Source of the DNA: a virus
Taxonomy: Duplodnaviria; Heunggongvirae; Uroviricota; Caudoviricetes
Length of the DNA: 12,951 nucleotides
Direction: 5' to 3' (one strand)
IMG/VR virus record: IMGVR_UViG_2671180662_000002
Shown here: piece after piece, positions 1 to 12,951 of the stretch
Position numbering within the stretch: the first letter of the stretch is position 1
Layout of the letters: every line of letters begins with the position of its first letter
Program-made: the position numbers and the translations under genes
Notes under the pieces: model-generated
What the model was told of the DNA's origin: nothing
The model's database searches: none
What the model saw: only the letters and a program-made list of their open reading frames with translations

Positions 1-61
1 AATCGGAAAATCGATACTGGAAAAACTCTAACTCGGTGGCCAGTTTTTGTTGACCACTTCA
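1..61 (+). mobile_element. Right terminal end (inverted repeat) of an IS3-family insertion sequence whose body lies upstream of the window
   Basis: Read on the minus strand inward from position 61, the sequence is TGAAGTGGTCAACAAAAACTGGCCAC. It starts with TGA and has GGCCAC at positions 21-26, mirroring the IS end at 12717 (TGAGGTAGCCTGAGTTTAACGGACAC, GGACAC at 21-26). IS3-family elements end 5'-TG...CA-3', and the + strand here ends ...CACTTCA at 61. All three forward frames are closed within bases 1-100, so the downstream terminase has no upstream continuation. Boundary is approximate to a few bp. Confidence 0.5.
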
Positions 62-1102: not shown

Positions 1103-3268
1103 ATGGCCGACGAAAACAGACTCAATTCCATTCTGTGTAAGTTTGACGCAGACTGGATGGCGAGCGATGAAGCCAGAACCGAGGCGACAAATGACCTGTA
1201 TTTTAGCCGAGTGTCGCAATGGGATGACTGGCTATCAAACTACACTACCCTGCAATATCGCGGACAATTCGATGTTGTTCGCCCGGAGGTCAGGAAACTG
1301 GTCGCAGAGATGCGCCGGAACCCTGTCGACGTTCTCTTCCGACCCAAAGACGGCGCTAATCCTGATGCAGCCGATGTATTGATGGGGATGTATCGTACTG
1401 ATATGCGCCATAACACGGCAAAGATTGCCGTTAACGTTGGCGTTCGTGAGCAGATAGAGTCAGGCGTTGGTGCATGGCGTCTGGTCACGCAGTACGAAGA
1501 CAACGATCCAACAAGCAACAATCAGGTAATCCGACGCCTGCCAATCCATGAAGCCTGCTCACACGTCATATGGGACGCCAACAGCAAGCAGATGGATAAG
1601 AGCGACGCTAAGCACTGCACGGTGATTAACGCCTTGTCGCGCAATGGCTGGAAAGAGTTCGCAGAGGATTACGGTATTGACCCGGATACCCTGCCATCTT
1701 TCCAGAATCCTAACGATACATGGCTATTCCCGTGGGTGTCGAATGATGTCGTCTACGTCGCTGAGTATTACGAGGTAGAAGAGGAGAAGGAGAAGGTCTT
1801 CATCTACCGCGACCCGCTGACAGGTGAGCCGGTCAGCTATTACCAGCAGGATATCAAAGACGTCATCGACGACCTGGCTAATCGTGGATTCATTAAGGTA
1901 GCAGAGCGCAAGGTGAAGCGTCGGCGTGTGTATAAGTCGATCATCACCTGTACGCAGATACTGAAAGACCGCGAGAAGATAGCCGGAGAGCATATTCCAA
2001 TCGTTCCAGTGTATGGCGAATGGTCATTCGCTGGTGACAAGGAGTGCTACGAGGGTGTGGTAAGGCTGACGAAAGACGGTCAACGCCTTCGTAACATGAT
2101 TATGTCGTTCAACGCCGATATTGTTGCTCGGTCACCGAAGAAGAAACCGACCTTCTTCCCTGAGCAAATCGAAGGCTACGAATACATGTACGGCGGAAAT
2201 GATGACTATCCGTACTATCTGCAGAACAGGACTGATGAAAACGGTAACGACCTGCCGATTGGTCCAATCTCCTACATGGAAAACCCTGAAGTGCCGCAAG
2301 CCAACGCTTACATGCTTGAGGCTGCCACCAACGCAGTGAAAGAAGTGGCTAGTCTTGGCGTGGATGCGCAGGCGGCAAATGGTCAGGTCGCTTTTGATAC
2401 CGTCAATCAACTGAACATGCGGGCAGACCTTGAGACATACGTGTTTCAGGATAACCTGGCTACCGCAATGCGACGTGATGGCGAGATTTATGCCTCAATG
2501 GTCAACGATATTTATGACGTTCCTCGTCATGTAACGCTGACACTTGAAGATGGAAGCGAGAAAGACGTTCAACTCTATGCGCAAGTTGTCGATTACCAGT
2601 CCGGCAATGTGGTCACACTCAACGACATTCGCGGTCGATATGAGTGCTATACAGACGTTGGGCCATCCTTCCAGAGTATGAAGGAACAGAACCGCGCAGA
2701 GATTCAGGAGTTGCTCACCAAGGTTCCGCAAGGTACTCCAGAGTTCCAGATGCTGATGCTGCAATACTTCACGCTGCTTGACGGTAAAGGCGTCGAGATG
2801 ATGCGAGAGTACGCGAACAAGCAACTGGTGATGATGGGGCTGAAGAAACCAGAAACACCTGAAGAGATGGAGATGGTGCAGCAGGCACAACAACAGCCGC
2901 AGCAGCCATCAGCAGAGCAAATTCAGGCGCAGGGTATCCTTCTGCAAGGTCAGGCTGAATTGCTCAAGGCAGAGAACCAACAGGCGCAGATTCAGGTTGA
3001 AGCTGCCAAGGTTGAAGCCCAAAACCAACTCAACGCCGCGAAGATTGCAGAAATATTCAACAATATGGACCTCGACAAGCAGGCAGAACTGCGTGAGTAC
3101 CTCAGGCTCGTAGGTCAATTCCAGCAACAGCGCAGCAAAGATGCTCGTGCTAACGCTGAGCTGCTTCTTAAAGATGCAGACCAGACTCATTCACAACGCA
3201 TGGATTTCGCGAATCTTATGCGTCAAGTTCAAATCCCCTCCGGCGGAGTAGCCGAGACACCTCAATAA
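1103..3268 (+). CDS. 1: Portal protein (P22 gp1 family)
   Basis: 721 aa. The N-terminus ([28 protein letters not shown]...[10 protein letters not shown]) and long internal stretches ([43 protein letters not shown]) closely match my recollection of P22 gp1 (about 725 aa). The C-terminal 150 aa is Gln/Ala/Glu-rich and helical, consistent with the P22 portal barrel. GGAG ribosome-binding site 5 nt upstream; start abuts the TerL stop. Confidence 0.95.
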
Positions 3269-3281
3269 GAGAGAGTTAATC

Positions 3282-4193
3282 ATGGACCAAACCACCGACA
3301 TTCAGGCTTCTGAAGAATTAACCCTGCCCGGCAATCATGCAGCGGCATCTGCTGATGGCTTAGTTGTCGATAATGCCAACGACAGCGCAGGTCAGGAAGA
3401 AGGCTTTGAGATTGTCCGGAAAGACGATGAGAAACCAAAACAAGACCCGGCAACTAATGCTGAATTTGCCCGTCGCCGCATCGAACGCAAACGCCAGCGT
3501 GAGCTTGAGCAGCAGATGGAAGCGGTTAAGCGTGGAGAGTTGCCGGAGCACCTGCGGGTGAACCCTGAGTTACCAAAACAACCAGACCCTAACGATTATC
3601 TTTCCGAAGATGCACTGGCTAAGTACGACTATGACCAGAGCCGCGCACTGGCTGCCTTCCAGCAGGCAAACAGTGAATGGCAGATCAAGGCTATGGACGC
3701 ACGAAGCCAGGCTGTCGCCGAGCAGGGTCGCAAAACTCAGGAGTTCACCCAGCAATCAGCGCAATACGTCGAGGCGGCCCGTAAGCACTACGAGGCAGCG
3801 GAAAAGCTCAATATCCCTGACTATCAGGAGAAAGAGGATGCATTCATGCAACTGGTGCCGCCAGCAGTCGGTGCCGACATCATGCGCCTCTTCCCGGAGA
3901 AATCCGCCGCTCTCATGTATCACCTTGGTGCTAATCCTGAGAAAACACGCCAGTTGCTGGCGATGGACGGGCAATCCGCGCTGATTGAACTCACTCGACT
4001 GTCAGAACGTTTAACTCTCAAGCCTCGAGCCAAGCCTGTTTCAGAAGCCCCGTTACCTGATGAACCCATTCAGGGACATGCTGTTGCTGCAAATATCTCT
4101 GCGATTGAAAAGCAGATGGAGGCGGCAGCAAACAAAGGGGATGTAGAGACGTACCGCAAGCTCAAGGCGCAACTGAATAAAGGAATTCGATAA
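3282..4193 (+). CDS. 8: Scaffolding protein (P22 gp8 family)
   Basis: 303 aa, the same length as P22 gp8. Acidic, helical, with a basic C-terminal coat-binding region ([19 protein letters not shown]) and conserved stretches such as [30 protein letters not shown]. Sits between portal and coat. GAGAGAG ribosome-binding site upstream. Confidence 0.93.
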
Positions 4194-5488
4194 TGGCATT
4201 AAATGAAGGTCAACTGGTCACGTATGCTCTGGATGAAATCATCGGAACCGTCCAGAACCTGACGCCAATGGCGTCAAAAGTGACAAAATACCCCCCTCCG
4301 GCAGAATCCATGCAGCGTTCAAGCAACACCGTGTGGATGCCTGTTGAGCAGGAAGCGCCAACCCAGACTGGCTGGGATTTAACTGGCAACGCAACCGGGA
4401 TTCTGGAACTCTCCGTGAAGTGCAACATGGGCGATCCGGATAACGATTTCTTCGAGCTTCGTGCAGATGACCTGCGTGATGAGCGTTCTTACCGTCGCCG
4501 CATCCAGGCATCCGCCAAAAAACTGGCGAATAACATTGAGTCAGCGATTGCCAAACAGGCAACTGAAATGGGCTCGCTTGTTGTTCACGATACCCGCGCA
4601 ATTGGTCCATCGACTGGCCTGCCTGGCTGGGATTTTGTGTCTGATGCAGAGCGACTGATGTTCTCCCGTGAGCTAAACCGCGACATGGGCATCAGTTACT
4701 TCCTGAACCCTGACGATTACCGCAAAGCAGGCCGCAACCTGGTAGATGGTGACATCTTCGGGCGCGTTCCTGAAGAAGCATATCGAAACGGTACTATTCA
4801 GCGTCAGATTGCTGGCTTTGATGAAATTCTTCGCTCACCGAAACTTCCGGCAGTTACCAAGTCAACCGCGACTGGTGTAACTGTTTCTGGTGCGCAGAAG
4901 TTTAAGCCGCAGGCATACACCCTTGATACCGATGGTAACAAAGAGAACGTCGACAACCGTGTTGCAACGGTGACCGTATCCTCCACCACCGGATTTAAGC
5001 GCGGCGACAAAATCAGCTTCATTGGTGTGAAGTTCCTGTCTCAGATGGCGAAGAATGTGCTGACTGATGACGCGACTTTCTCAATCACCCGTGTGATCGA
5101 TGGTACTCACATCGAAATCACGCCGAAGCCGATTGCGCTGGATGACGCGTCACTGACAAAAGAAGAGAAGGCTTACGCTAACGTAAACACCTCTCTTGCT
5201 GATACCACTCCGGTAAACGTTCTGAACGTGGCAACAACCACCGCTAACGTGTTCTGGGCTGATGACTCAATCCGCCTGCTGTCTCAGCCGATCCCGGTAA
5301 CCCATGAACTGTTTGCTGGCATGAAAACGTCTTCCTTCAGCATTCCAGGTATTGGTGTTAACGGCATCTTCGCAACGCAGGGTGATATCAACACTCTGTC
5401 TGGTAAGTGCCGTATTGCTGTGTGGTATTCAGCATGTGCTGTACGACCAGAGGCAATTGGTGTTGGTCTGCCTAACCAGACCGCGTGA
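4193..5488 (+). CDS. 5: Major capsid (coat) protein (P22 gp5 family, HK97-like fold)
   Basis: 431 aa (P22 gp5 is 430 aa as I recall). N-terminus MALNEGQ and C-terminus [13 protein letters not shown] match P22 coat, with many conserved internal blocks ([49 protein letters not shown]). Start overlaps the scaffold stop (TAATG). Confidence 0.95.
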
Positions 5489-5532: not shown

Positions 5533-5763
5533 ATGACACACATGATCTTTCGTCATGGCGACATGAAGAAGTGGAAAGGCGTTGGCTACGACTTTGAAAT
5601 CGTGAAAGCCGAAGAGCTTCAGGAATATCTGGATGCTGGCTGGTTTTCACATCCTGATGACCTTTTGAAGGATGTTGCAGAGCCAGAGCCAGAAGAAAAA
5701 CAGCGTAAAAAGCCTGGTCGAAAACCTAAGGCGGCAGCAGATGAACCTGACAACGAAGGGTGA
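5533..5763 (+). CDS. Small hypothetical protein (76 aa) between coat and gp4; acidic core with a Lys/Pro-rich basic tail
   Basis: ATG at 5533 with GGAG 6 nt upstream (5523-5526). Translation [76 protein letters not shown]. Its 3' end overlaps the gp4 start by 23 nt in another frame. The ORF-track start at 5485 is GTG and overlaps the coat stop; I prefer 5533. Function unknown. Confidence 0.45.
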
Positions 5764-6241
5764 TTTAGTTCTTGCGGCATTACGTAAGCTCGGTGTTGCA
5801 TCAAATGCCACGTTAACCGATGTCGAACCGCAGTCTATGGAAGACGGCGTCAACGACCTTGAAATGATGATGGCTGAATGGCTTGGCGGTGATGCGTCAC
5901 CTGGTATCAACGTTGGCTACATTTTTGCTGATGCAGATGTTGCTCCGGATCCGGGCGATGAGCACGGTTTATCAAATAACGCTATCAATGCCGTCATTTT
6001 CAACCTTGCCTGCCGAATTGCTCCAGATTATGCGCTGGAAGCGTCTGCAAAACTTATAACCACTGCCAGATACGGGAAAGAGCGACTCGTCAAACTGTCT
6101 GCAATGGACAGGGCAAAAGCAGCTAAATGTAAGTCCGGTTATCCAAACCGTATGCCTGTTGGTAGTGGTAACCAGTTGGCGAAGTGGAATGGTTGGAATT
6201 ACTTCCACCGAAAGGAACCTTGCGATAACGGGAGCGAATAA
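5741..6241 (+). CDS. 4: Tail adaptor / head-completion protein (P22 gp4 family)
   Basis: Start chosen at the internal ATG 5741 ([33 protein letters not shown]...), giving 166 aa. This matches the P22 gp4 N-terminus I recall ([21 protein letters not shown]...) and its length. Conserved [15 protein letters not shown] block. The ORF-track start at 5672 adds 23 non-homologous residues and is rejected. Confidence 0.85.
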
Positions 6242-7659
6242 TGCCTATTCAGCAACTTCCGCTTATGAAAGGTGTCGGCAAAGACTTCCGAAACGCCGAC
6301 TATATCGACTATCTGCCAGTGAATATGCTGGCTACACCCAAAGAAATCCTGAACAGCAGCGGATATCTTCGCTCATTCCCGGGCATTGCCAAACGTTCTG
6401 ACGTGAACGGTGTATCTCGCGGCGTCGAGTACAACATGGCGCAGAATGCTGTTTATCGCGTGTGTGGCGGCAAGCTGTACAAAGGAGAAAGTGAAGTCGG
6501 TGATGTTGCCGGAAGTGGTCGTGTATCAATGGCGCATGGTCGGACATCACAGGCGGTAGGCGTTAATGGTCAACTGGTCGAGTATCGCTATGATGGCACG
6601 GTCAAAACCGTCTCAAACTGGCCTACAGACAGTGGATTCACTCAGTATGAGTTAGGTTCAGTTCGCGACATTACGCGCTTACGTGGGCGTTATGCGTGGT
6701 CAAAAGACGGAACTGATTCATGGTTTATCACTGACCTTGAAGACGAATCTCATCCTGACCGTTACAGCGCACAATATCGTGCCGAGTCTCAGCCTGACGG
6801 CATCATCGGTATCGGGACATGGCGAGACTTCATCGTCTGCTTTGGTTCATCGACTATTGAATATTTCTCCCTGACTGGCGCAACCACCGTTGGTGCCGCT
6901 TTGTATGTTGCACAACCATCGCTGATGGTGCAGAAAGGCATTGCCGGAACTTACTGCAAAACGCCATTCGCTGATTCGTATGCGTTTATCAGCAATCCGG
7001 CAACGGGTGCGCCGTCTGTGTATATCATCGACTCCGGTCAGGTGTCACCAATTGCCAGCGCGAGCATTGAGAAAATCCTCCGCTCCTACACTGCTGATGA
7101 ACTGGCTGATGGTGTGATGGAATCGCTGCGATTTGATGCTCATGAGTTGCTGATTATCCACCTTCCGCGTCACGTCCTCGTGTACGACGCATCTTCAATC
7201 GCCAATGGCCCACAATGGTGTGTGCTGAAAACAGGTCTGTATGACGATGTGTACCGCGCTATCGACTTCGTTTACGAAGGCAATCAGATAACGTGCGGCG
7301 ATAAGCTGGAATCTGTTACCGGGAAACTGCAATTCGATATCAGCAGCCAGTACGACAAGCAACAGGAACACCTGCTGTTTACTCCACTCTTCAAAGCGGA
7401 TAACGCCAGAGTGTTCGACCTTGAGGTTGAATCGTCAACTGGCGTTGCGCAGTACGCCGACCGCCTTTTTCTCTCTGCAACCACTGACTGCATCAATTAC
7501 GGGCGTGAGCAGATGATTGAGCAGAATGAACCGTTCGTTTACGACAAGCGTGTTTTGTGGAAGCGAGTAGGGCGCATCAGGAAAAATGTCGGCTTCAAAT
7601 TGCGCGTTATCACGAAGTCACCTGTCACTCTGTCTGGCGCTCAGATAAGGATTGAGTAA
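6241..7659 (+). CDS. 10: Tail hub / tail accessory protein (P22 gp10 family)
   Basis: 472 aa, the same length as P22 gp10. N-terminus [49 protein letters not shown] is near-identical to my recollection of P22 gp10. Start overlaps the gp4 stop (TAATG). Confidence 0.9.
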
Positions 7660-8507
7660 TGGCTGATTCGAATCTCAATGTGCCGGTAATCATCCAAGCT
7701 ACGCGGCTCGATACATCAGTCCTTCCACGCAATATCTTCTCGCAGTCGTATCTGCTTTACGTTATCGCACAGGGCACTGATGTTGGTAACGTGGCTAACA
7801 AAGCCAACGAGGCCGGACAGGGCGCTTATGATGCACAGGTCAGGAACGATGAGCAGGATGTGATTCTCGCTGACCATGAGCAGCGAATTTCTGCTGCGGA
7901 AGCAACGCTTGTTAATCATGAGGAGCGAATCAGACAGGCAGAATCAACTCTTCAGGACCATGAAACACGAATAGCTCAGAATGAAAGCGATATTTCGTCG
8001 CTTGACACAAGAGTTCAGTCGCTGGAGTCGCAGGTTTCAGACCATGAAACGCGCATCGATGCTCTGGAGTATGCAACCACACGCAAGAAGTCAGAGGTTG
8101 TTTACTCTGGTGTATCTGTAACCATCCCGACAGCGCCGACCAACCTTGTTAGCCTGCTGAAAACGCTCACACCGTCATCCGGCTCGTTGGCACCATTCTT
8201 CGACACCGTTAACAACAAGATGGTTGTGTTCAACGAGAACAAAACCCTGCTCTTCAAGTTGTCGATTGTCGGCACGTGGCCCAGCGGAACCGCCAACAGG
8301 TCAATGCAGCTAACCTTTTCCGGCTCTGTTCCTGACACACTGGTCAGCAGTCGTAATGCGGCGACAACAACCGACAACATCCTGTTAGCTACGTTCTTCA
8401 GCGTGGATAAAGACGGCTTTCTTGCCACAAATGGCAGTACGTTAACCATTCAGTCGAATGGTGCGGCGTTTACTGCCACAACCATCAAGATAATCGCGGA
8501 GCAGTGA
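7659..8507 (+). CDS. 26: Tail needle / plug protein (P22 gp26 family) with a C-terminal knob-type domain unlike the P22 C-terminus (Sf6-type)
   Basis: 282 aa. The N-terminal 60 aa ([43 protein letters not shown]...) match the P22 gp26 N-terminus, followed by a coiled-coil segment with a 14-residue DHExRI repeat. The C-terminal ~130 aa is Ser/Thr-rich and beta-like, not P22-like. Length and architecture fit the Sf6 needle (recalled). Confidence 0.88.
7872..8069 (+). repeat. 42-bp periodic in-frame repeat encoding the trimeric coiled-coil shaft of the tail needle
   Basis: GACCATGAGCAGCGAATT at 7872, AATCATGAGGAGCGAATC at 7914, GACCATGAAACACGAATA at 7956 and GACCATGAAACGCGCATC at 8040 sit at 42-nt multiples. 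They encode D/N-H-E-x-R-I every 14 residues (two heptads). Confidence 0.7.
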
Positions 8508-8962
8508 TGATTACATTCAAACCAACGCGAAACATCGACCTGATAGAAGCAGTCGGAAATCACCCTGACATTATCGCCGGGAGCAACAACGGTGATGGAT
8601 ACGACTACAAACCTGAATGCCGTTACTTTGAGGTGAACGTGCACGGTCAGTTTGGCGGCATTGTTTACTATCAGGAGATTCAGCCGCTGACATTAGATTG
8701 CCACGCCATGTACCTGCCAGAGATTCGCGGCTTCAGCAAGGAAATTGGGCTGGCGTTCTGGCGATACATTCTGACTAACACCACCGTTCAGTGCGTAACA
8801 TCGTTCGCTGCACGCAAATTCCGACACGGTCAGATGTACTGCGCAATGATTGGCCTTAAGCGTGTAGGAACCATCAAGAAATACTTCAAAGGCGTGGATG
8901 ACGTGACTTTTTACAGCGCCACACGCGAAGAACTAATCGACTTCCTGAATCACGGGAGATAG
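8504..8962 (+). CDS. 14: gp14-position protein (virion assembly / ejection-associated), assigned by synteny
   Basis: 152 aa ORF whose start overlaps the needle stop (ATGA). It occupies the slot between gp26 and gp7 that gene 14 holds in P22. I cannot confirm sequence identity from memory, so the assignment rests on position and size only. Confidence 0.65.
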
Positions 8963-8964
8963 CC

Positions 8965-9657
8965 ATGTTATATGCATTTAAGCTGGGCAGAAAACTGCGC
9001 GGCGAGGAACCTTATTGCCCTGAAAAAGGCGGGAAAGGTGGCAGTTCTGATAAAAGCGCAAAGTATGCAGCAGAAGCCCAGAAGTATGCTGCAGACCTGC
9101 AAAATCAGCAGTGGCAGACGATCATGAAAAACCTTGCTCCGTTCACGCCTCTTGCGGAGCAGTATGTTAACCAGCTTCAGAACCTTTCCAGTTTAGAAGG
9201 TCAGGGGCAGGCACTTAATCAGTATTACAACTCTAAGCAGTATAAAGACCTTGCAGGGCAGGCGCGTTACCAGAGTCTTGCTGCTGCGGAGGCGACGGGT
9301 GGACTTGGTTCGACAGCCACAAGCAATCAACTGGCTACGATCGCGCCGACACTCGGTCAGTCTTGGTTATCAAATCAGATGAGCAATTACAACAATCTGG
9401 CAAACGTTGGGCTTGGTGCGCTGCAAGGTCAGGCAAACGCCGGGCAGACGTACGCCAACAACATGAGCAGCATTGCACAGCAAAGCGCAGCTCTTGCCGC
9501 TGCTAATGCCAATAAACCATCAAGTCTTCAGACTGCAATTAGCGGTGGCACGTCTGGTGCGATTGCCGGTGCAGGTCTTGCCAGCCTTTTGGGAACATCA
9601 ACGCCTTGGGGCGCTGGTATTGGTGCTGGTATCGGATTGCTTGGCTCGTTGTTTTAA
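8965..9657 (+). CDS. 7: Ejection (E) protein, P22 gp7 family
   Basis: 230 aa. N-terminus MLYAFKLGRKLRGEEPYCPEKGGKGGSSDKSAKYAAEAQKYAADLQNQQWQTIMKNLAPF closely matches my recollection of P22 gp7. Gln/Asn/Ala-rich body and a C-terminal Gly/Ala-rich hydrophobic segment (GAIAGAGLASLLGTSTPWGAGIGAGIGLLGSLF). GGGAGA ribosome-binding site upstream. Confidence 0.88.
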   Translation: MLYAFKLGRKLRGEEPYCPEKGGKGGSSDKSAKYAAEAQKYAADLQNQQWQTIMKNLAPFTPLAEQYVNQLQNLSSLEGQGQALNQYYNSKQYKDLAGQARYQSLAAAEATGGLGSTATSNQLATIAPTLGQSWLSNQMSNYNNLANVGLGALQGQANAGQTYANNMSSIAQQSAALAAANANKPSSLQTAISGGTSGAIAGAGLASLLGTSTPWGAGIGAGIGLLGSLF

Positions 9658-9666
9658 GGGGGAATC

Positions 9667-10998
9667 ATGGCTACTTGGCAAGGAACAAACGGCGGATTGT
9701 TGGCTGGTATCGGCGGCGTCAACTCAAACGCTCCGAGCGTAAATGACATCGGCAATACGCTTCAGCTTATCAGGCAGAACAATGATATTGAGCGTTCAGG
9801 CGCTAACAATGTTGGGCTGACTGCTTTGCAAGGTCTTTCAGGTATTGCGGGTGTTTTTCAGCAGGAAAAGCAGGCTCAGCGGCAGAAAGAATTTCAGCAG
9901 GCGTACGCTAATGCTTATGCGTCTGGTGATCGCGGTGCTTTGCGTCAGTTGGCTACTCAATATCCAGACCAGATTGAATCCGTTCGTAAAGGCATGGGAT
10001 TCATTGATGAAGAGCAGCGTAATTCTATCGGCACCTTAGCGGCTGGCGCACGCCTTGCGTCATCGTCTCCAGAAGCAATGCAATCATGGCTGCAAAACAA
10101 CGCCGGTGAGTTAGCTCGTGTTGGCGTTAATCCTCATGACGTCGCTCAGATGTACCAACAGAACCCGCGGCAGTTCGGCGAATTTGTCGATCACCTGGGG
10201 ATGAACAGTCTCGGGCCCGAAAAATACTTTGACCTACAGGATAAAATGCAGGGTCGCCAGGTTACCATGCGCGGTCAGGATCTGGATTCGCAAACCGCCG
10301 CTCGGAATCAGGCAATCACAATGCGCGGACAAGATATCCAGGCGAATTTAGGTCAGCAGCGCATTAATCTGGACGCAGAAACAAACCGCATTAACAACGA
10401 AAATAAGCGCCTTGACCGGATGCTATCAGCAGAAACTAACGACCTGAAGCGCCAGGAAATACAGAGCCGCATAGCAGCCAACAACCAGCAGTTGCAGCAG
10501 AAGCAGCAAGCGCTAAATGATGGCTACAAAGACGGCATCAACACCCTCACAACCAGCATGTTCACTCTGAACGATATCGTTAGTTCTCCTTCACTTAAGA
10601 GCATTACAGGCTTACGTGGAGTAATCCCCAACGTTCCAGGCTCACAGGCTGCAGACACTCAGGCACGACTTGATACCTTTAAATCACAAGCATACCTGAC
10701 AGCGGTTCAGGCCATGCGAGGCATGGGCGCACTTTCTGATGCCGAGGGCAAAAAGCTCGACCAGGCTGTTGGTTCGCTGCAGAACTCGCAGAGCGAGGAG
10801 TCCTTTCGTCGCAACGCTGGCGTCATCCTGAACACGCTCAACCAGAAGCGTAATGAGGCGGTTGGTAAGTACGTTCAGCAAAACGGTATCAAGCGAGTGG
10901 AAGCGCCTCAGGCTTCTATAGATTACCTGAAGCAGCACCCCGAGCTGTCAATCGACTTCATTAATCGCTACGGATATCTTCCATCTTTGGGGCAGTAA
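9667..10998 (+). CDS. 20: Ejection (E) protein, gp20-position
   Basis: 443 aa, Gln/Asn-rich and largely helical, with an internal duplicated motif (VTMRGQDLD and ITMRGQDIQ, 18 residues apart). It sits between gp7 and the last ejection gene as gene 20 does in P22 (P22 gp20 is about 471 aa, recalled). AGGGGG ribosome-binding site upstream. Assigned by synteny and composition. Confidence 0.72.
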   Translation: MATWQGTNGGLLAGIGGVNSNAPSVNDIGNTLQLIRQNNDIERSGANNVGLTALQGLSGIAGVFQQEKQAQRQKEFQQAYANAYASGDRGALRQLATQYPDQIESVRKGMGFIDEEQRNSIGTLAAGARLASSSPEAMQSWLQNNAGELARVGVNPHDVAQMYQQNPRQFGEFVDHLGMNSLGPEKYFDLQDKMQGRQVTMRGQDLDSQTAARNQAITMRGQDIQANLGQQRINLDAETNRINNENKRLDRMLSAETNDLKRQEIQSRIAANNQQLQQKQQALNDGYKDGINTLTTSMFTLNDIVSSPSLKSITGLRGVIPNVPGSQAADTQARLDTFKSQAYLTAVQAMRGMGALSDAEGKKLDQAVGSLQNSQSEESFRRNAGVILNTLNQKRNEAVGKYVQQNGIKRVEAPQASIDYLKQHPELSIDFINRYGYLPSLGQ

Positions 10999-12729
10999 AT
11001 GGCTAATTACCGTGATTTGTTAGAGCAGGCTGGCGCACGTTACGGTGTGCCAGAAGGGTTGATGACTGCACTGGGTGCCAAGGAGTCTTCTTACAACCCT
11101 GCCGCAGTAAGCTCCGCCGGGGCTGTAGGATTGACTCAGGTCATGCCTGGGACATGGCGTGATATGGGTTATACCGATGAGCAAATGCAAAACCCCGAAT
11201 ATCAGGCTGACGCTGGCGCGCGCTATCTGGCAAAGATGTACCAGCAGTTTGGTAACTGGCGTGACTCTCTTCAGGCTTATCACGACGGTCCCGGCAACGT
11301 TATGAAGGCAAAGCGTGGTGAATATACGCCAGGACCTGAAGGCCGCGGTTACGTTGATGATCGCTTTGCTCAATGGGCTGGTGACCCGGTGACAGACTCA
11401 ACAGTCGAACAGCGCGCCACCTCTGCAAAGGTACATCCTCAGCAAGACCCTAACAACCCGTTTGCACAACTGGAAGTACAGTCATCCGAACAAGTATCGG
11501 CATCAGGTGTGCAGTCAGACCCAAATAATCCATTTGCTCAGATTGAGCAGCAGGCAGCCAGTCAGCAGCCACCTCAACCCGTAAGTTCTGTCGCACCGAA
11601 ACCTGTTCAGCAACAAACAGTTAATCAGGCCAATAATGCACCAACACGGGAAGAACCATCATTGATGCAACAAGCTGGCGATTGGCTCACTGGTGGTCAA
11701 AGTGCAGGGCAAATTGCAGAACAGGCTGGTCGTGGTCTGGTAAACATACCATTTGACGTATTGCAGGGTGGCGCAAGTCTGATTAATGCAATCAGTCAGG
11801 GGCTTGGGGGGCCAAAAGTATTGGATGATGTTTATCGTCCAGTAGACAGACCGACAGACCCCTACGCGCAAGCTGGAGAGTCAATAGGCGGTTATCTTGT
11901 TCCTGGAGCAGGTGTAGCTGGAAACATGGTCATTGGTTCTCTCGCTGACGCGGCGAATCAACGGGGTGATTTTGCCGAAAATGCCGCTATTAATGCCGGA
12001 CTTAGCATTGCTACGCATGGCCTGATAAATGGCGTTACCCGTGGTGTTCGTGGTGCATCAAATATAATTAGTGGCAATAAAACATCTGCACAGAGAGCGA
12101 CCACTGCGCCAACAGAAACATCACCATTCTCCGGTGATGCCGCTGCAGCAACAAATCCTGCGGTTCATGCCGCAGAGGCAAGAGTAGCACAAGGTGTACC
12201 AATGACGCCTGCGACGAAGAACCCAGAGGAAGTCGTTCGCACAGTAGCAGCACAAAAAAGGCCAAATCTCGCTTCATCGCTTGATGAACTAGATATCAAT
12301 CCTCAGGCTGAAGTTCTGGAGTCTGCTGAAAGGCTTAATGTTGATTCATTACTCCCTTCACACTTTTCCGGGAACGAGCAATACAAGGCAGTTGAGCAAG
12401 CAATCAAGTCCCGTGCGGGTTCTGCTCTACAGGTGCAGGAAAATGAAGCAATCAGGCAGCTAGCACAGGGCGCGGGTGAGATAATTGATCGCGTTTCCGG
12501 TGCAAAAGATGCTCTTGGTATGAGCGACAAGTTTATTGATACGGTCAATGGAAGAATGTCTGCGCTGATGAAACGAAGCGACCAGCTTTATCGCAATGTT
12601 GAAAAGGCGATGCCTGCAGGTGCAAAAATTGATGCGCCATCAACAAGGTCAATGCTCAAACAGGTGGCAGAAGATCTTGGCGGGATGAAAAACCTTGACC
12701 CTATTGAAAAGAGAGTTGAGGTAGCCTGA
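10999..12729 (+). CDS. 16: Ejection (E) protein at the gp16 position, with an N-terminal lytic transglycosylase (SLT) domain; the last codons and stop come from the adjacent IS inverted repeat, so it is probably 3'-truncated
   Basis: 576 aa. Residues about 8-115 carry family-1 lytic transglycosylase motifs: AKESSYNP (candidate catalytic Glu29), [10 protein letters not shown], and [10 protein letters not shown] tandem motif DPNNPFAQ(L/I)E follows. The C-terminal half is Ala/Gly-rich. The stop TGA at 12727-12729 lies inside the putative IS left repeat, which starts about 12717. Start abuts the gp20 stop. Confidence 0.78.
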
Positions 12730-12951
12730 GTTTAACGGACACTCCTTCCTGAAATAGAATGGCATCAGAAGGAGCTAATAATGAGCAGAAAAACCCAACG
12801 TTACTCTAAAGAGTTCAAAGCCGAAGCTGTCAGAACGGTTCTTGAAAATCAACTTTCGATCAGTGAAGGCGCTTCCCGATTATCCCTTCCTGAAGGCACT
12901 TTAGGACAATGGGTTACCGCCGCCAGAAAAGGGCTCGGTACTCCTGGTTCC
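12717..12951 (+). mobile_element. Left end of an IS3-family insertion sequence (IS600-like), continuing beyond the window end
   Basis: Terminal repeat TGAGGTAGCCTGAGTTTAACGGACAC starts with TG and has GGACAC at positions 21-26, as in the IS3 left repeat I recall (TGATCTTACCCAGCAATAGTGGACAC). It is followed by an AGGAG ribosome-binding site and an OrfA-type reading frame. Exact first base is uncertain by a few nt. Confidence 0.8.
12781..12951 (+). CDS. IS3-family transposase OrfA (helix-turn-helix DNA-binding N-terminal part), 3'-partial at window end
   Basis: ATG at 12781 with AGGAG 7 nt upstream. Translation MSRKTQRYSKEFKAEAVRTVLENQLSISEGASRLSLPEGTLGQWVTAARKGLGTPGS has the short basic N-terminus and helix-turn-helix typical of IS3-family OrfA. 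It resembles what I recall for IS600 of Shigella. The ORF runs off the end of the window. Confidence 0.85.
   Translation, partial: MSRKTQRYSKEFKAEAVRTVLENQLSISEGASRLSLPEGTLGQWVTAARKGLGTPGS

Follow-up and report, generated by a model that had tools for sequence, protein, structure and literature searches.

Phage T7 ejects three internal proteins at infection, and the largest of them, gp16, carries an N-terminal lytic transglycosylase (SLT) domain that is presumed to cleave peptidoglycan locally during genome delivery; this lytic transglycosylase activity is conditionally dispensable (PMC8954989). The ejection proteins (E-proteins) of P22-like phages, unlike those of T7, are not arranged as a core stack (PMC8954989). 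In P22, gp4 is listed as a virion-associated lysin, with Moak & Molineux 2004 cited as the source (PMC5380687), and this agrees with the attribution of P22 muralytic activity to gp4 in the initial annotation of the locus described here.

A 2022 review states that P22-like phages have no lytic transglycosylase domain. Four phages were analysed there, and the statement is true for those four and not for the P22-like group as a whole. In the literature searched (Casjens & Thuman-Commike 2011 lay outside its coverage), explicit description of an SLT domain in a P22-like gp16 was limited to database-style mentions and to the review's statement of absence, and no enzymatic or virion-proteomic reports on any P22-like SLT-gp16 were found. 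The paper on phage Sf101 says only that the injection modules of Sf101 and CUS-3 are different (PMC4159516). The SLT fusion is already known and is not a discovery of this work, since Sf101 gp13, a 576-residue Shigella protein and the E. coli copies already carry transglycosylase names in GenBank/RefSeq. We consider it likely that the locus analysed here encodes the gp16-slot E-protein of an Sf101-type P22-like (Lederbergvirus) prophage, in which an SLT domain is joined through a flexible linker to an ordinary gp16 body, and that this protein has a T7 gp16-like delivery role in intact relatives and survives here as a relic.

A truncated gp16-slot gene in a P22-like late operon

The DNA we analysed, referred to below as the window, is a stretch of 12,951 nucleotides (IMG/VR record IMGVR_UViG_2671180662_000002) filled by a P22-like (Lederbergvirus-type) late-operon segment. 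PHROG scans gave the complete P22-type head and tail gene order: portal (1103-3268), scaffold (3282-4193), coat (4193-5488), a homologue of the gp4-type head-tail adaptor (5672-6241, + strand; phrog_637, E=9e-67), gp10 (6241-7659), needle gp26 (7659-8507), gp14 (8504-8962), and homologues of the ejection proteins gp7 (8965-9657, + strand; phrog_598, E=3.5e-100) and gp20 (9667-10998, + strand; phrog_2534, E=3e-194). The gp4-type adaptor is 39% identical to Sf6 gp7, which is the homologue of P22 gp4.

The gene under study occupies positions 10999-12729 on the + strand. Its ATG at 10999 adjoins the gp20 stop codon (TAA, 10996-10998), and it encodes the largest ejection protein as an IS-truncated ORF of 576 residues. 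The order gp7, gp20, gp16-slot gene is common to the window, Sf101, P22, HK620, CUS-3, epsilon34 and Dewey. By tblastn, aa 221-371 of the window protein are 73.5% identical to P22 gp16, and the gp16-family body (aa 218-573; 11650-12717, + strand) matches phrog_770, 'DNA transfer protein', with E=2e-107. Thus, both its position after the gp7 and gp20 homologues and its similarity to P22 gp16 bear out the earlier placement of this gene in the gp16 position.

The closest phage is Sf101, with 98.4% nucleotide identity over window positions 9600-12716. Its gp13 (AII27837.1, 911 aa, named 'transglycosylase') is a full-length orthologue that gives the same Pfam SLT match and has the same linker and gp16 body as the window protein; the two SLT domains are identical except at residue 90 (S90/A90). 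The window copy ends at residue 573 through insertion of IS600. By gene position and by homology to P22 gp16 it belongs to the gp16 family, but with 573 of 911 residues it counts as a piece of a family member and not as a functional one. An antisense ORF at 11020-11373 (117 aa, TTG start) was rejected as spurious, as it is contained in + strand coding sequence that is strongly conserved; its first coordinate is the same as that of the range 11020-11345 given in the initial annotation.

The N-terminal lytic transglycosylase domain

According to the initial annotation, positions 11020-11345 (aa 8-116) encode an SLT domain at the N-terminus of the gp16-slot protein. A Pfam search, which it had proposed as a check, gave a strong SLT match. 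PF01464 (SLT) aligned to aa 7-110 (11017-11328, + strand) over profile positions 2-110 of 117 with 86.9 bits (E=9.3e-25), the gathering cut-off being 21.3 bits, and the whole domain spans approximately aa 1-125. In a phmmer comparison with PDB sequences, Slt70 (1qsa) matched with E=1.1e-11, and MltC, MltE (EmtA) and a phage tape-measure lytic transglycosylase were also matched. The NCBIfam lytic transglycosylase models Slt, MltC, EmtA, MltD and MltF matched the same stretch (E=2e-20 to 2e-5), and BLASTP against residues 1-200 of T7 gp16 gave 28% identity over ~120 residues (E=7e-11). A resemblance of motifs that arose by chance or as a compositional artefact is refuted by the Pfam, PDB and T7 gp16 matches; with E values of ~1e-25 (Pfam), 1e-11 (PDB) and 2e-20 (NCBIfam) and with all motifs aligned residue by residue, we give it practically no credence.

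All four family-1 motifs are present on the + strand. Motif I, E-S-S-Y, lies at aa 29-32 (11083-11094), with the codon at 11083-11085 specifying Glu29, the predicted catalytic acid/base. Motif II, G-L-T-Q-V (11128-11142), which aligns to G-L-M-Q-I of Slt70, lies at aa 44-48, not at 43-47 as had been annotated; the annotated positions of motifs I and IV were right. The motif III region (aa 65-77; 11191-11229) has as its Slt70 equivalent D-P-E-T-N-I-N-I-G-T-S-Y-L (DPETNINIGTSYL). Motif IV, A-Y-H-D-G (aa 93-97; 11275-11289), is followed by P-G, and AYHDGPG (93-99) aligns to AYNAGPG of Slt70. Motifs II (G-L-M-Q), III (...Y-L) and IV (A-Y-N-x-G) were reportedly defined by Blackburn & Clarke 2001.

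In the Slt70 alignment, window residue 4 corresponds to chain residue 453 of 1qsa and there is no gap before residue 53, so that Glu29-Ser30 falls on Glu478-Ser479. Glu478 is the catalytic acid/base of Slt70, reportedly identified by Thunnissen and van Asselt. In the T7 alignment, window residue 2 corresponds to gp16 residue 10, again free of gaps, and Glu29-Ser30 thus falls on Glu37-Ser38; Glu37, the published catalytic residue of T7 gp16, was examined by Moak & Molineux 2000 (as cited in PMC8954989). Glu29, which had been put forward as the candidate catalytic glutamate, is therefore upheld by both alignments.

The domain departs from Slt70 in having GLTQ for GLMQ in motif II and AYHDG for AYNAG in motif IV, departures that we call conservative. 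The exchange of T for M and of H-D for N-A, together with the conditional dispensability of the T7 activity (PMC8954989), would be compatible with a catalytically inactive domain that serves only as a peptidoglycan-binding or structural anchor of the ejection conduit. However, the Glu-Ser pair, G-x-x-Q, Y-L and A-Y-x-x-G are all kept, the score is well above the Pfam threshold, and residues E29, S30, G44, Q47, A93, Y94, G97 and G99 do not vary when the Dewey, IME_EC2, Skarpretter and T7 copies are aligned with the window protein. Overall identity of the aligned copies (Lederbergvirus, Murrayvirus, Skarprettervirus and T7) is no more than 30-63%, and motif invariance across such divergent copies is the pattern expected of an active enzyme. 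We consider an inactive anchor unlikely, and we infer enzymatic activity for the domain. An AlphaFold2 single-sequence model of aa 1-134 was all-helical and, at low confidence (pLDDT 54.5), was set aside as evidence on the fold. With a profile score above threshold, a catalytic Glu in an E-S pair and motifs II-IV, the N-terminus of the gp16-slot protein is, judged from its sequence, a genuine family-1 (Slt70/GH23-type) lytic transglycosylase domain.

The likeness to Slt70 (PDB 1QSA), MltC and MltE extends to all four motifs and the catalytic Glu. These are housekeeping enzymes that are exported, as periplasmic proteins or lipoproteins, and have further domains; the window domain, by contrast, forms part of a phage ejection protein without a signal peptide, and direct reading of the translation revealed neither a hydrophobic signal-like segment nor an export signal at the N-terminus. 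The window protein resembles T7 gp16 in that an N-terminal SLT domain is placed on the largest of three ejected internal proteins, and T7-like gp16 proteins were among the tblastn matches of the window protein. In contrast, the rest of the protein, a P22 gp16-family body instead, is not detectably related to T7 gp16: BLASTP similarity to residues 1-200 of T7 gp16 stops at window-protein residue 119, phrog_342 is matched no further than position 241 of its 1235, and no homology was found across the rest of the ~1300-residue T7 protein. The window protein falls outside the T7 gp16 family; by analogy, it would work like T7 gp16-N.

SLT domains occur in phage endolysins too, and 'endolysin' PHROGs were among the weaker matches of the window protein (phrog_669, E=5e-22, and phrog_10475), so a real SLT domain might instead act as an auxiliary endolysin in host lysis at the end of infection. 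We regard this as very improbable. The domain is in one ORF with a gp16-type ejection protein, within the E-protein gene cluster, and outside the group it is most strongly matched by proteins from the virion interior or the tail, namely T7-type gp16, tape-measure proteins and 'internal virion protein with endolysin domain'. In addition, the signal-less N-terminus argues against an endolysin, and Sf101 has its own holin/lysin/Rz cassette (PMC4159516). A lytic transglycosylase domain that acts during genome ejection is the reading we favor.

The linker, the gp16 core and exchange of the N-terminal segment

The SLT domain is joined to the gp16 body by a Q/P/A/S-rich linker of ~90 residues (aa 126-217; 11374-11649, + strand). 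This linker holds an imperfect 24-residue tandem with D-P-N-N-P-F-A-Q in each unit (aa 150-157 and 174-181). In the loci compared, no DPNNPF motif was found outside the segment formed by SLT domain and linker, and multiple alignment showed the linker to be missing from P22, Sf6, HK620 and CUS-3. The very conserved gp16 core, which includes DPYAQAGE, starts at approximately aa 50-60 in P22/HK620-type proteins and at aa 218 in the window protein; locally, this shared core is 73-92% identical between the window protein and SLT-less gp16 proteins. From the difference in where the core starts, we conclude that SLT domain and linker are an N-terminal addition, which is the outcome of the comparison with P22, Sf6 and HK620 gp16 N-termini that the initial annotation had suggested.

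Pfam detected no SLT domain at E<=1 in P22 gp16 (609 aa), Sf6 gp13 (665 aa) or HK620 gp16 (722 aa), nor in CUS-3 gp16 (719 aa) or epsilon34 gp13 (708 aa). These five proteins occupy the same gene slot and share the core with the window protein, and their C-terminal halves are of different sequence types. Because all of these homologues are without SLT, the modular difference from P22 that had been proposed for this locus is real.

Nucleotide comparison revealed that the first ~200 codons (SLT domain plus linker, aa 1 to ~205) are present at >=98% identity on three different gp16 bodies, those of Sf101 and the window, of Dewey and of IME10. Relative to the window, homology runs throughout in Sf101, extends to aa ~300 in Dewey, after which an HK620/epsilon34-type body follows, and extends to aa ~207 in IME10, after which an Sf6-type body follows. 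Epsilon34 has no SLT domain, yet it is 92.5% identical in nucleotides over aa 202-300, which puts a recombination joint where the linker ends; the joints to other gp16 bodies are at the linker 3' end, at aa ~202-207. By these patterns, SLT domain and linker behave as a recombining cassette and not as a lineage trait. A stronger proposal, that the cassette (aa 1 to ~205) is an active, freely exchangeable plug-in that is added to and dropped from otherwise unrelated gp16 bodies of P22-like phages, seems to us evenly balanced between right and wrong. The SLT-gp16 of IME10 is a 797-aa ORF that is unannotated in NC_019501.

Near-identical copies of Sf101 gp13 are found in APC_JM3.2, Dewey, Huey, IME10 and phiKp_30 and in E. 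coli/Shigella prophages. In a collection of 50,697 phage records, the near-identical cassette was present in 10 (~7 distinct phages) and a match to the gp16 body in 96. The cassette also occurs at >=95% identity in 68 of 5426 complete E. coli genomes, and PGAP has named every listed E. coli copy 'lytic transglycosylase domain-containing protein'.

More distant examples of the same architecture are found in Murrayvirus (IME_EC2), Skarprettervirus, Sortsne-like phages and Kosakonia/Klebsiella podophages, with SLT domains 57-66% identical to that of the window. Their gene order is that of the window: gp7-like, gp20-like, the SLT 'DNA transfer protein/transglycosylase' and then tailspike. In contrast to the window protein, the SLT-gp16 proteins of Murrayvirus, Skarprettervirus and Sortsne-like phages begin with ~35 additional residues, a leader similar to the N-terminus of T7 gp16, are without the DPNNPFAQ linker and have different bodies.

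State of this copy and a possible role in intact relatives

The phage segment (59-12716) has IS elements on both sides. At the left, a terminal sequence of the IS911 family (1-58, no strand assigned) is 100% identical to IS911-family loci and cuts the large terminase gene, inside which phage homology begins at base 59. At the right, Sf101 homology ends at 12716, and the sequence from 12717 onward is 100% identical to 'IS3-like element IS600 family transposase' loci. This is the left end of IS600, a member of the IS3 family (12717-12951, + strand), in which orfA starts at 12781. Its insertion interrupts the gene at codon 573 of 911, the C-terminal 338 residues being lost, and the 576-residue ORF consists of 573 native residues followed by E-V-A and a stop codon that IS600 supplies.

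In P22-like phages, the late promoter lies upstream of the terminase genes. The IS911-family end within the terminase gene and IS600 at 12717 thus leave a remnant separated from its native late promoter, and cuts at both ends make it doubtful that the window protein is produced from that promoter. The initial annotation had correctly placed the domain upstream of the IS truncation, but its suggestion that the domain could still be produced is weakened by the severed late promoter and the loss of 338 residues. Production would be possible only through adventitious transcription, such as might start at an IS-derived promoter, and even then there would be neither an export signal nor a virion to deliver the protein. 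Although the SLT domain sequence is intact, the arrangement of the locus makes a function in genome delivery here very unlikely, and we infer that the remnant is neither expressed nor functional.

Two representative genomes, Shigella flexneri SFBU1023 and one that bears the label E. coli ECMA0423, have the same gene-16/IS600 junction, and each of them matches the window only as far as the first 85 bp of IS600. At that break, SFBU1023 has an IS629-like element, beyond which the sequence is no longer phage gene 16. At NCBI, the exact 576-aa protein carries the name 'MULTISPECIES: lytic transglycosylase domain-containing protein [Shigella]'; it occurs on at least 1000 contigs, of which many are ~12.6-13.8 kb long, and is widespread in Shigella flexneri assemblies. 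An exact truncated allele that is intact over its 573 native codons on so many Shigella contigs, with the same IS junction in two representative genomes, might be taken to mean that Shigella flexneri has kept the protein as a useful domesticated lytic transglycosylase. However, such wide occurrence is explained by clonal descent in a heavily sequenced pathogen, the protein is without an export signal, and the IS-flanked segment is cut off from the late promoter. Moreover, related genomes show IS600 further disrupted and the downstream phage DNA gone, which is typical of prophage decay, and domestication appears exceedingly improbable to us. As far as its junctions tell, the window copy is a dead-end relic in a Shigella flexneri lineage.

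In intact relatives (Sf101, Dewey, Huey, IME10 and APC_JM3.2), the best-supported model is the one drawn by analogy with T7 gp16, in which SLT-gp16 would be packaged in the head as an internal protein and would leave through the tail when the phage infects a cell. Its SLT domain would refold in the periplasm and, with Glu29 as acid/base, would cleave MurNAc-GlcNAc bonds locally. The opened murein mesh may let the trans-envelope conduit of gp7, gp20 and gp16 form, and the flexible linker would tether the enzyme to the gp16 body, which would help build the conduit. Such a domain would be dispensable in principle, since P22-like phages without it infect the same hosts.

At the level of sequence, the observation made in the initial annotation is confirmed and its interpretation is supported in every testable part, with two corrections, one to the numbering of motif II and one to the prospect of production. 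The window copy itself matters little: an IS element has reduced it to a fragment, the Shigella prophage around it is decaying, and its automated label is already correct. The analysis confirms that some P22-like phages and prophages, a minority, have a lytic transglycosylase like that of T7 gp16 fused to their largest ejection protein. The practical value of this result is modest; it is mildly noteworthy only for the mosaic spread of the cassette and for its conflict with a generalisation in print. The near-identical cassette on three bodies amounts to a natural set of chimeras in which the part played by the domain in DNA delivery can be studied. If the cassette is indeed an active, freely exchangeable plug-in, then isogenic pairs with and without it (Dewey versus HK620/epsilon34-type bodies) would make the entry of gp16 into the periplasm, and its orientation, directly testable, and a subset of P22-like phages would breach peptidoglycan with an ejected T7-style enzyme, instead of or besides gp4.

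Insertion sequences bordering the phage segment

The left end of the window (1–58) consists of an IS911-family terminal sequence, which adjoins phage DNA directly and reads, as oriented there, ...GGCCAGTTTTTGTTGACCACTTCA. Base 59, within the large terminase gene, is the first base with phage homology, and the 12.7-kb phage segment is thus flanked by insertion sequences on both sides. At the right end, gene 16 is split by IS600 (window 12717–12951; the comparison region is 640–2100 of the fetched locus L009). S. flexneri SFBU1023 and a genome labelled E. coli, ECMA0423, both carry the same gene-16/IS600 junction, and in each of them the match to the window stops 85 bp inside IS600. In SFBU1023, this 85-bp stretch of IS600 is followed directly by an IS629-like element, and the DNA past that element is not related to gene 16.

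Gene 16 homologues in the databases

The window protein (10999–12726) matches the profile phrog_21143, whose length is exactly 576, over positions 1–576 with 1365 bits. The IS-truncated Shigella allele may be the sequence from which this PHROG family was made. The family is called 'lytic tail fiber protein,' a misleading name for an ejection protein. A second label concerns Salmonella phages 22 and 25 (KR296686.1 and KR296687.1), whose P22-type gp16 genes are named 'transglycosylase.' The SLT domain was not found in P22 gp16 itself; the label in these two phages was probably acquired from SLT-bearing homologues via the common gp16 core.

Linker duplication and an antisense reading frame

The linker which follows the SLT domain contains an imperfect 24-amino acid tandem duplication (window 11440–11583, AA 148–195), whose units are identical at 13/24 amino acids and 39/72 nucleotides. 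Both units include the motif DPNNPFAQ, which, among all fetched loci, occurs only in the cassette formed by the SLT domain and linker. On the minus strand, inside the SLT coding region, lies an ORF of 117 amino acids with a TTG start (window 11020–11373). It shares its start coordinate, 11020, with the range first noted for the SLT domain (11020–11345), and this antisense ORF showed no sign of being a gene.

The cassette on other gp16 proteins

An identical SLT-plus-linker cassette is found in phage IME10 (NC_019501; locus L011, 3001–5394), in a 797-amino acid ORF which carries no annotation in the IME10 records; there the gp16 body fused to the cassette, with the joint at AA 207, is of the Sf6 type. 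The SLT-bearing gp16 proteins of Murrayvirus (locus L012, leader at 3902–4010) and Skarprettervirus (locus L013, leader at 3896–4010) begin with a leader of ∼35 amino acids, MANIFDQFDQN..., which, when compared with 3596–3625 of locus L007, resembles the extreme N-terminus of T7 gp16 (MDKYDKNVP). The Lederbergvirus cassette lacks this leader. The likeness of the leader to T7 gp16 is a hint that the ejected lytic transglycosylase domains share a common ancestor.
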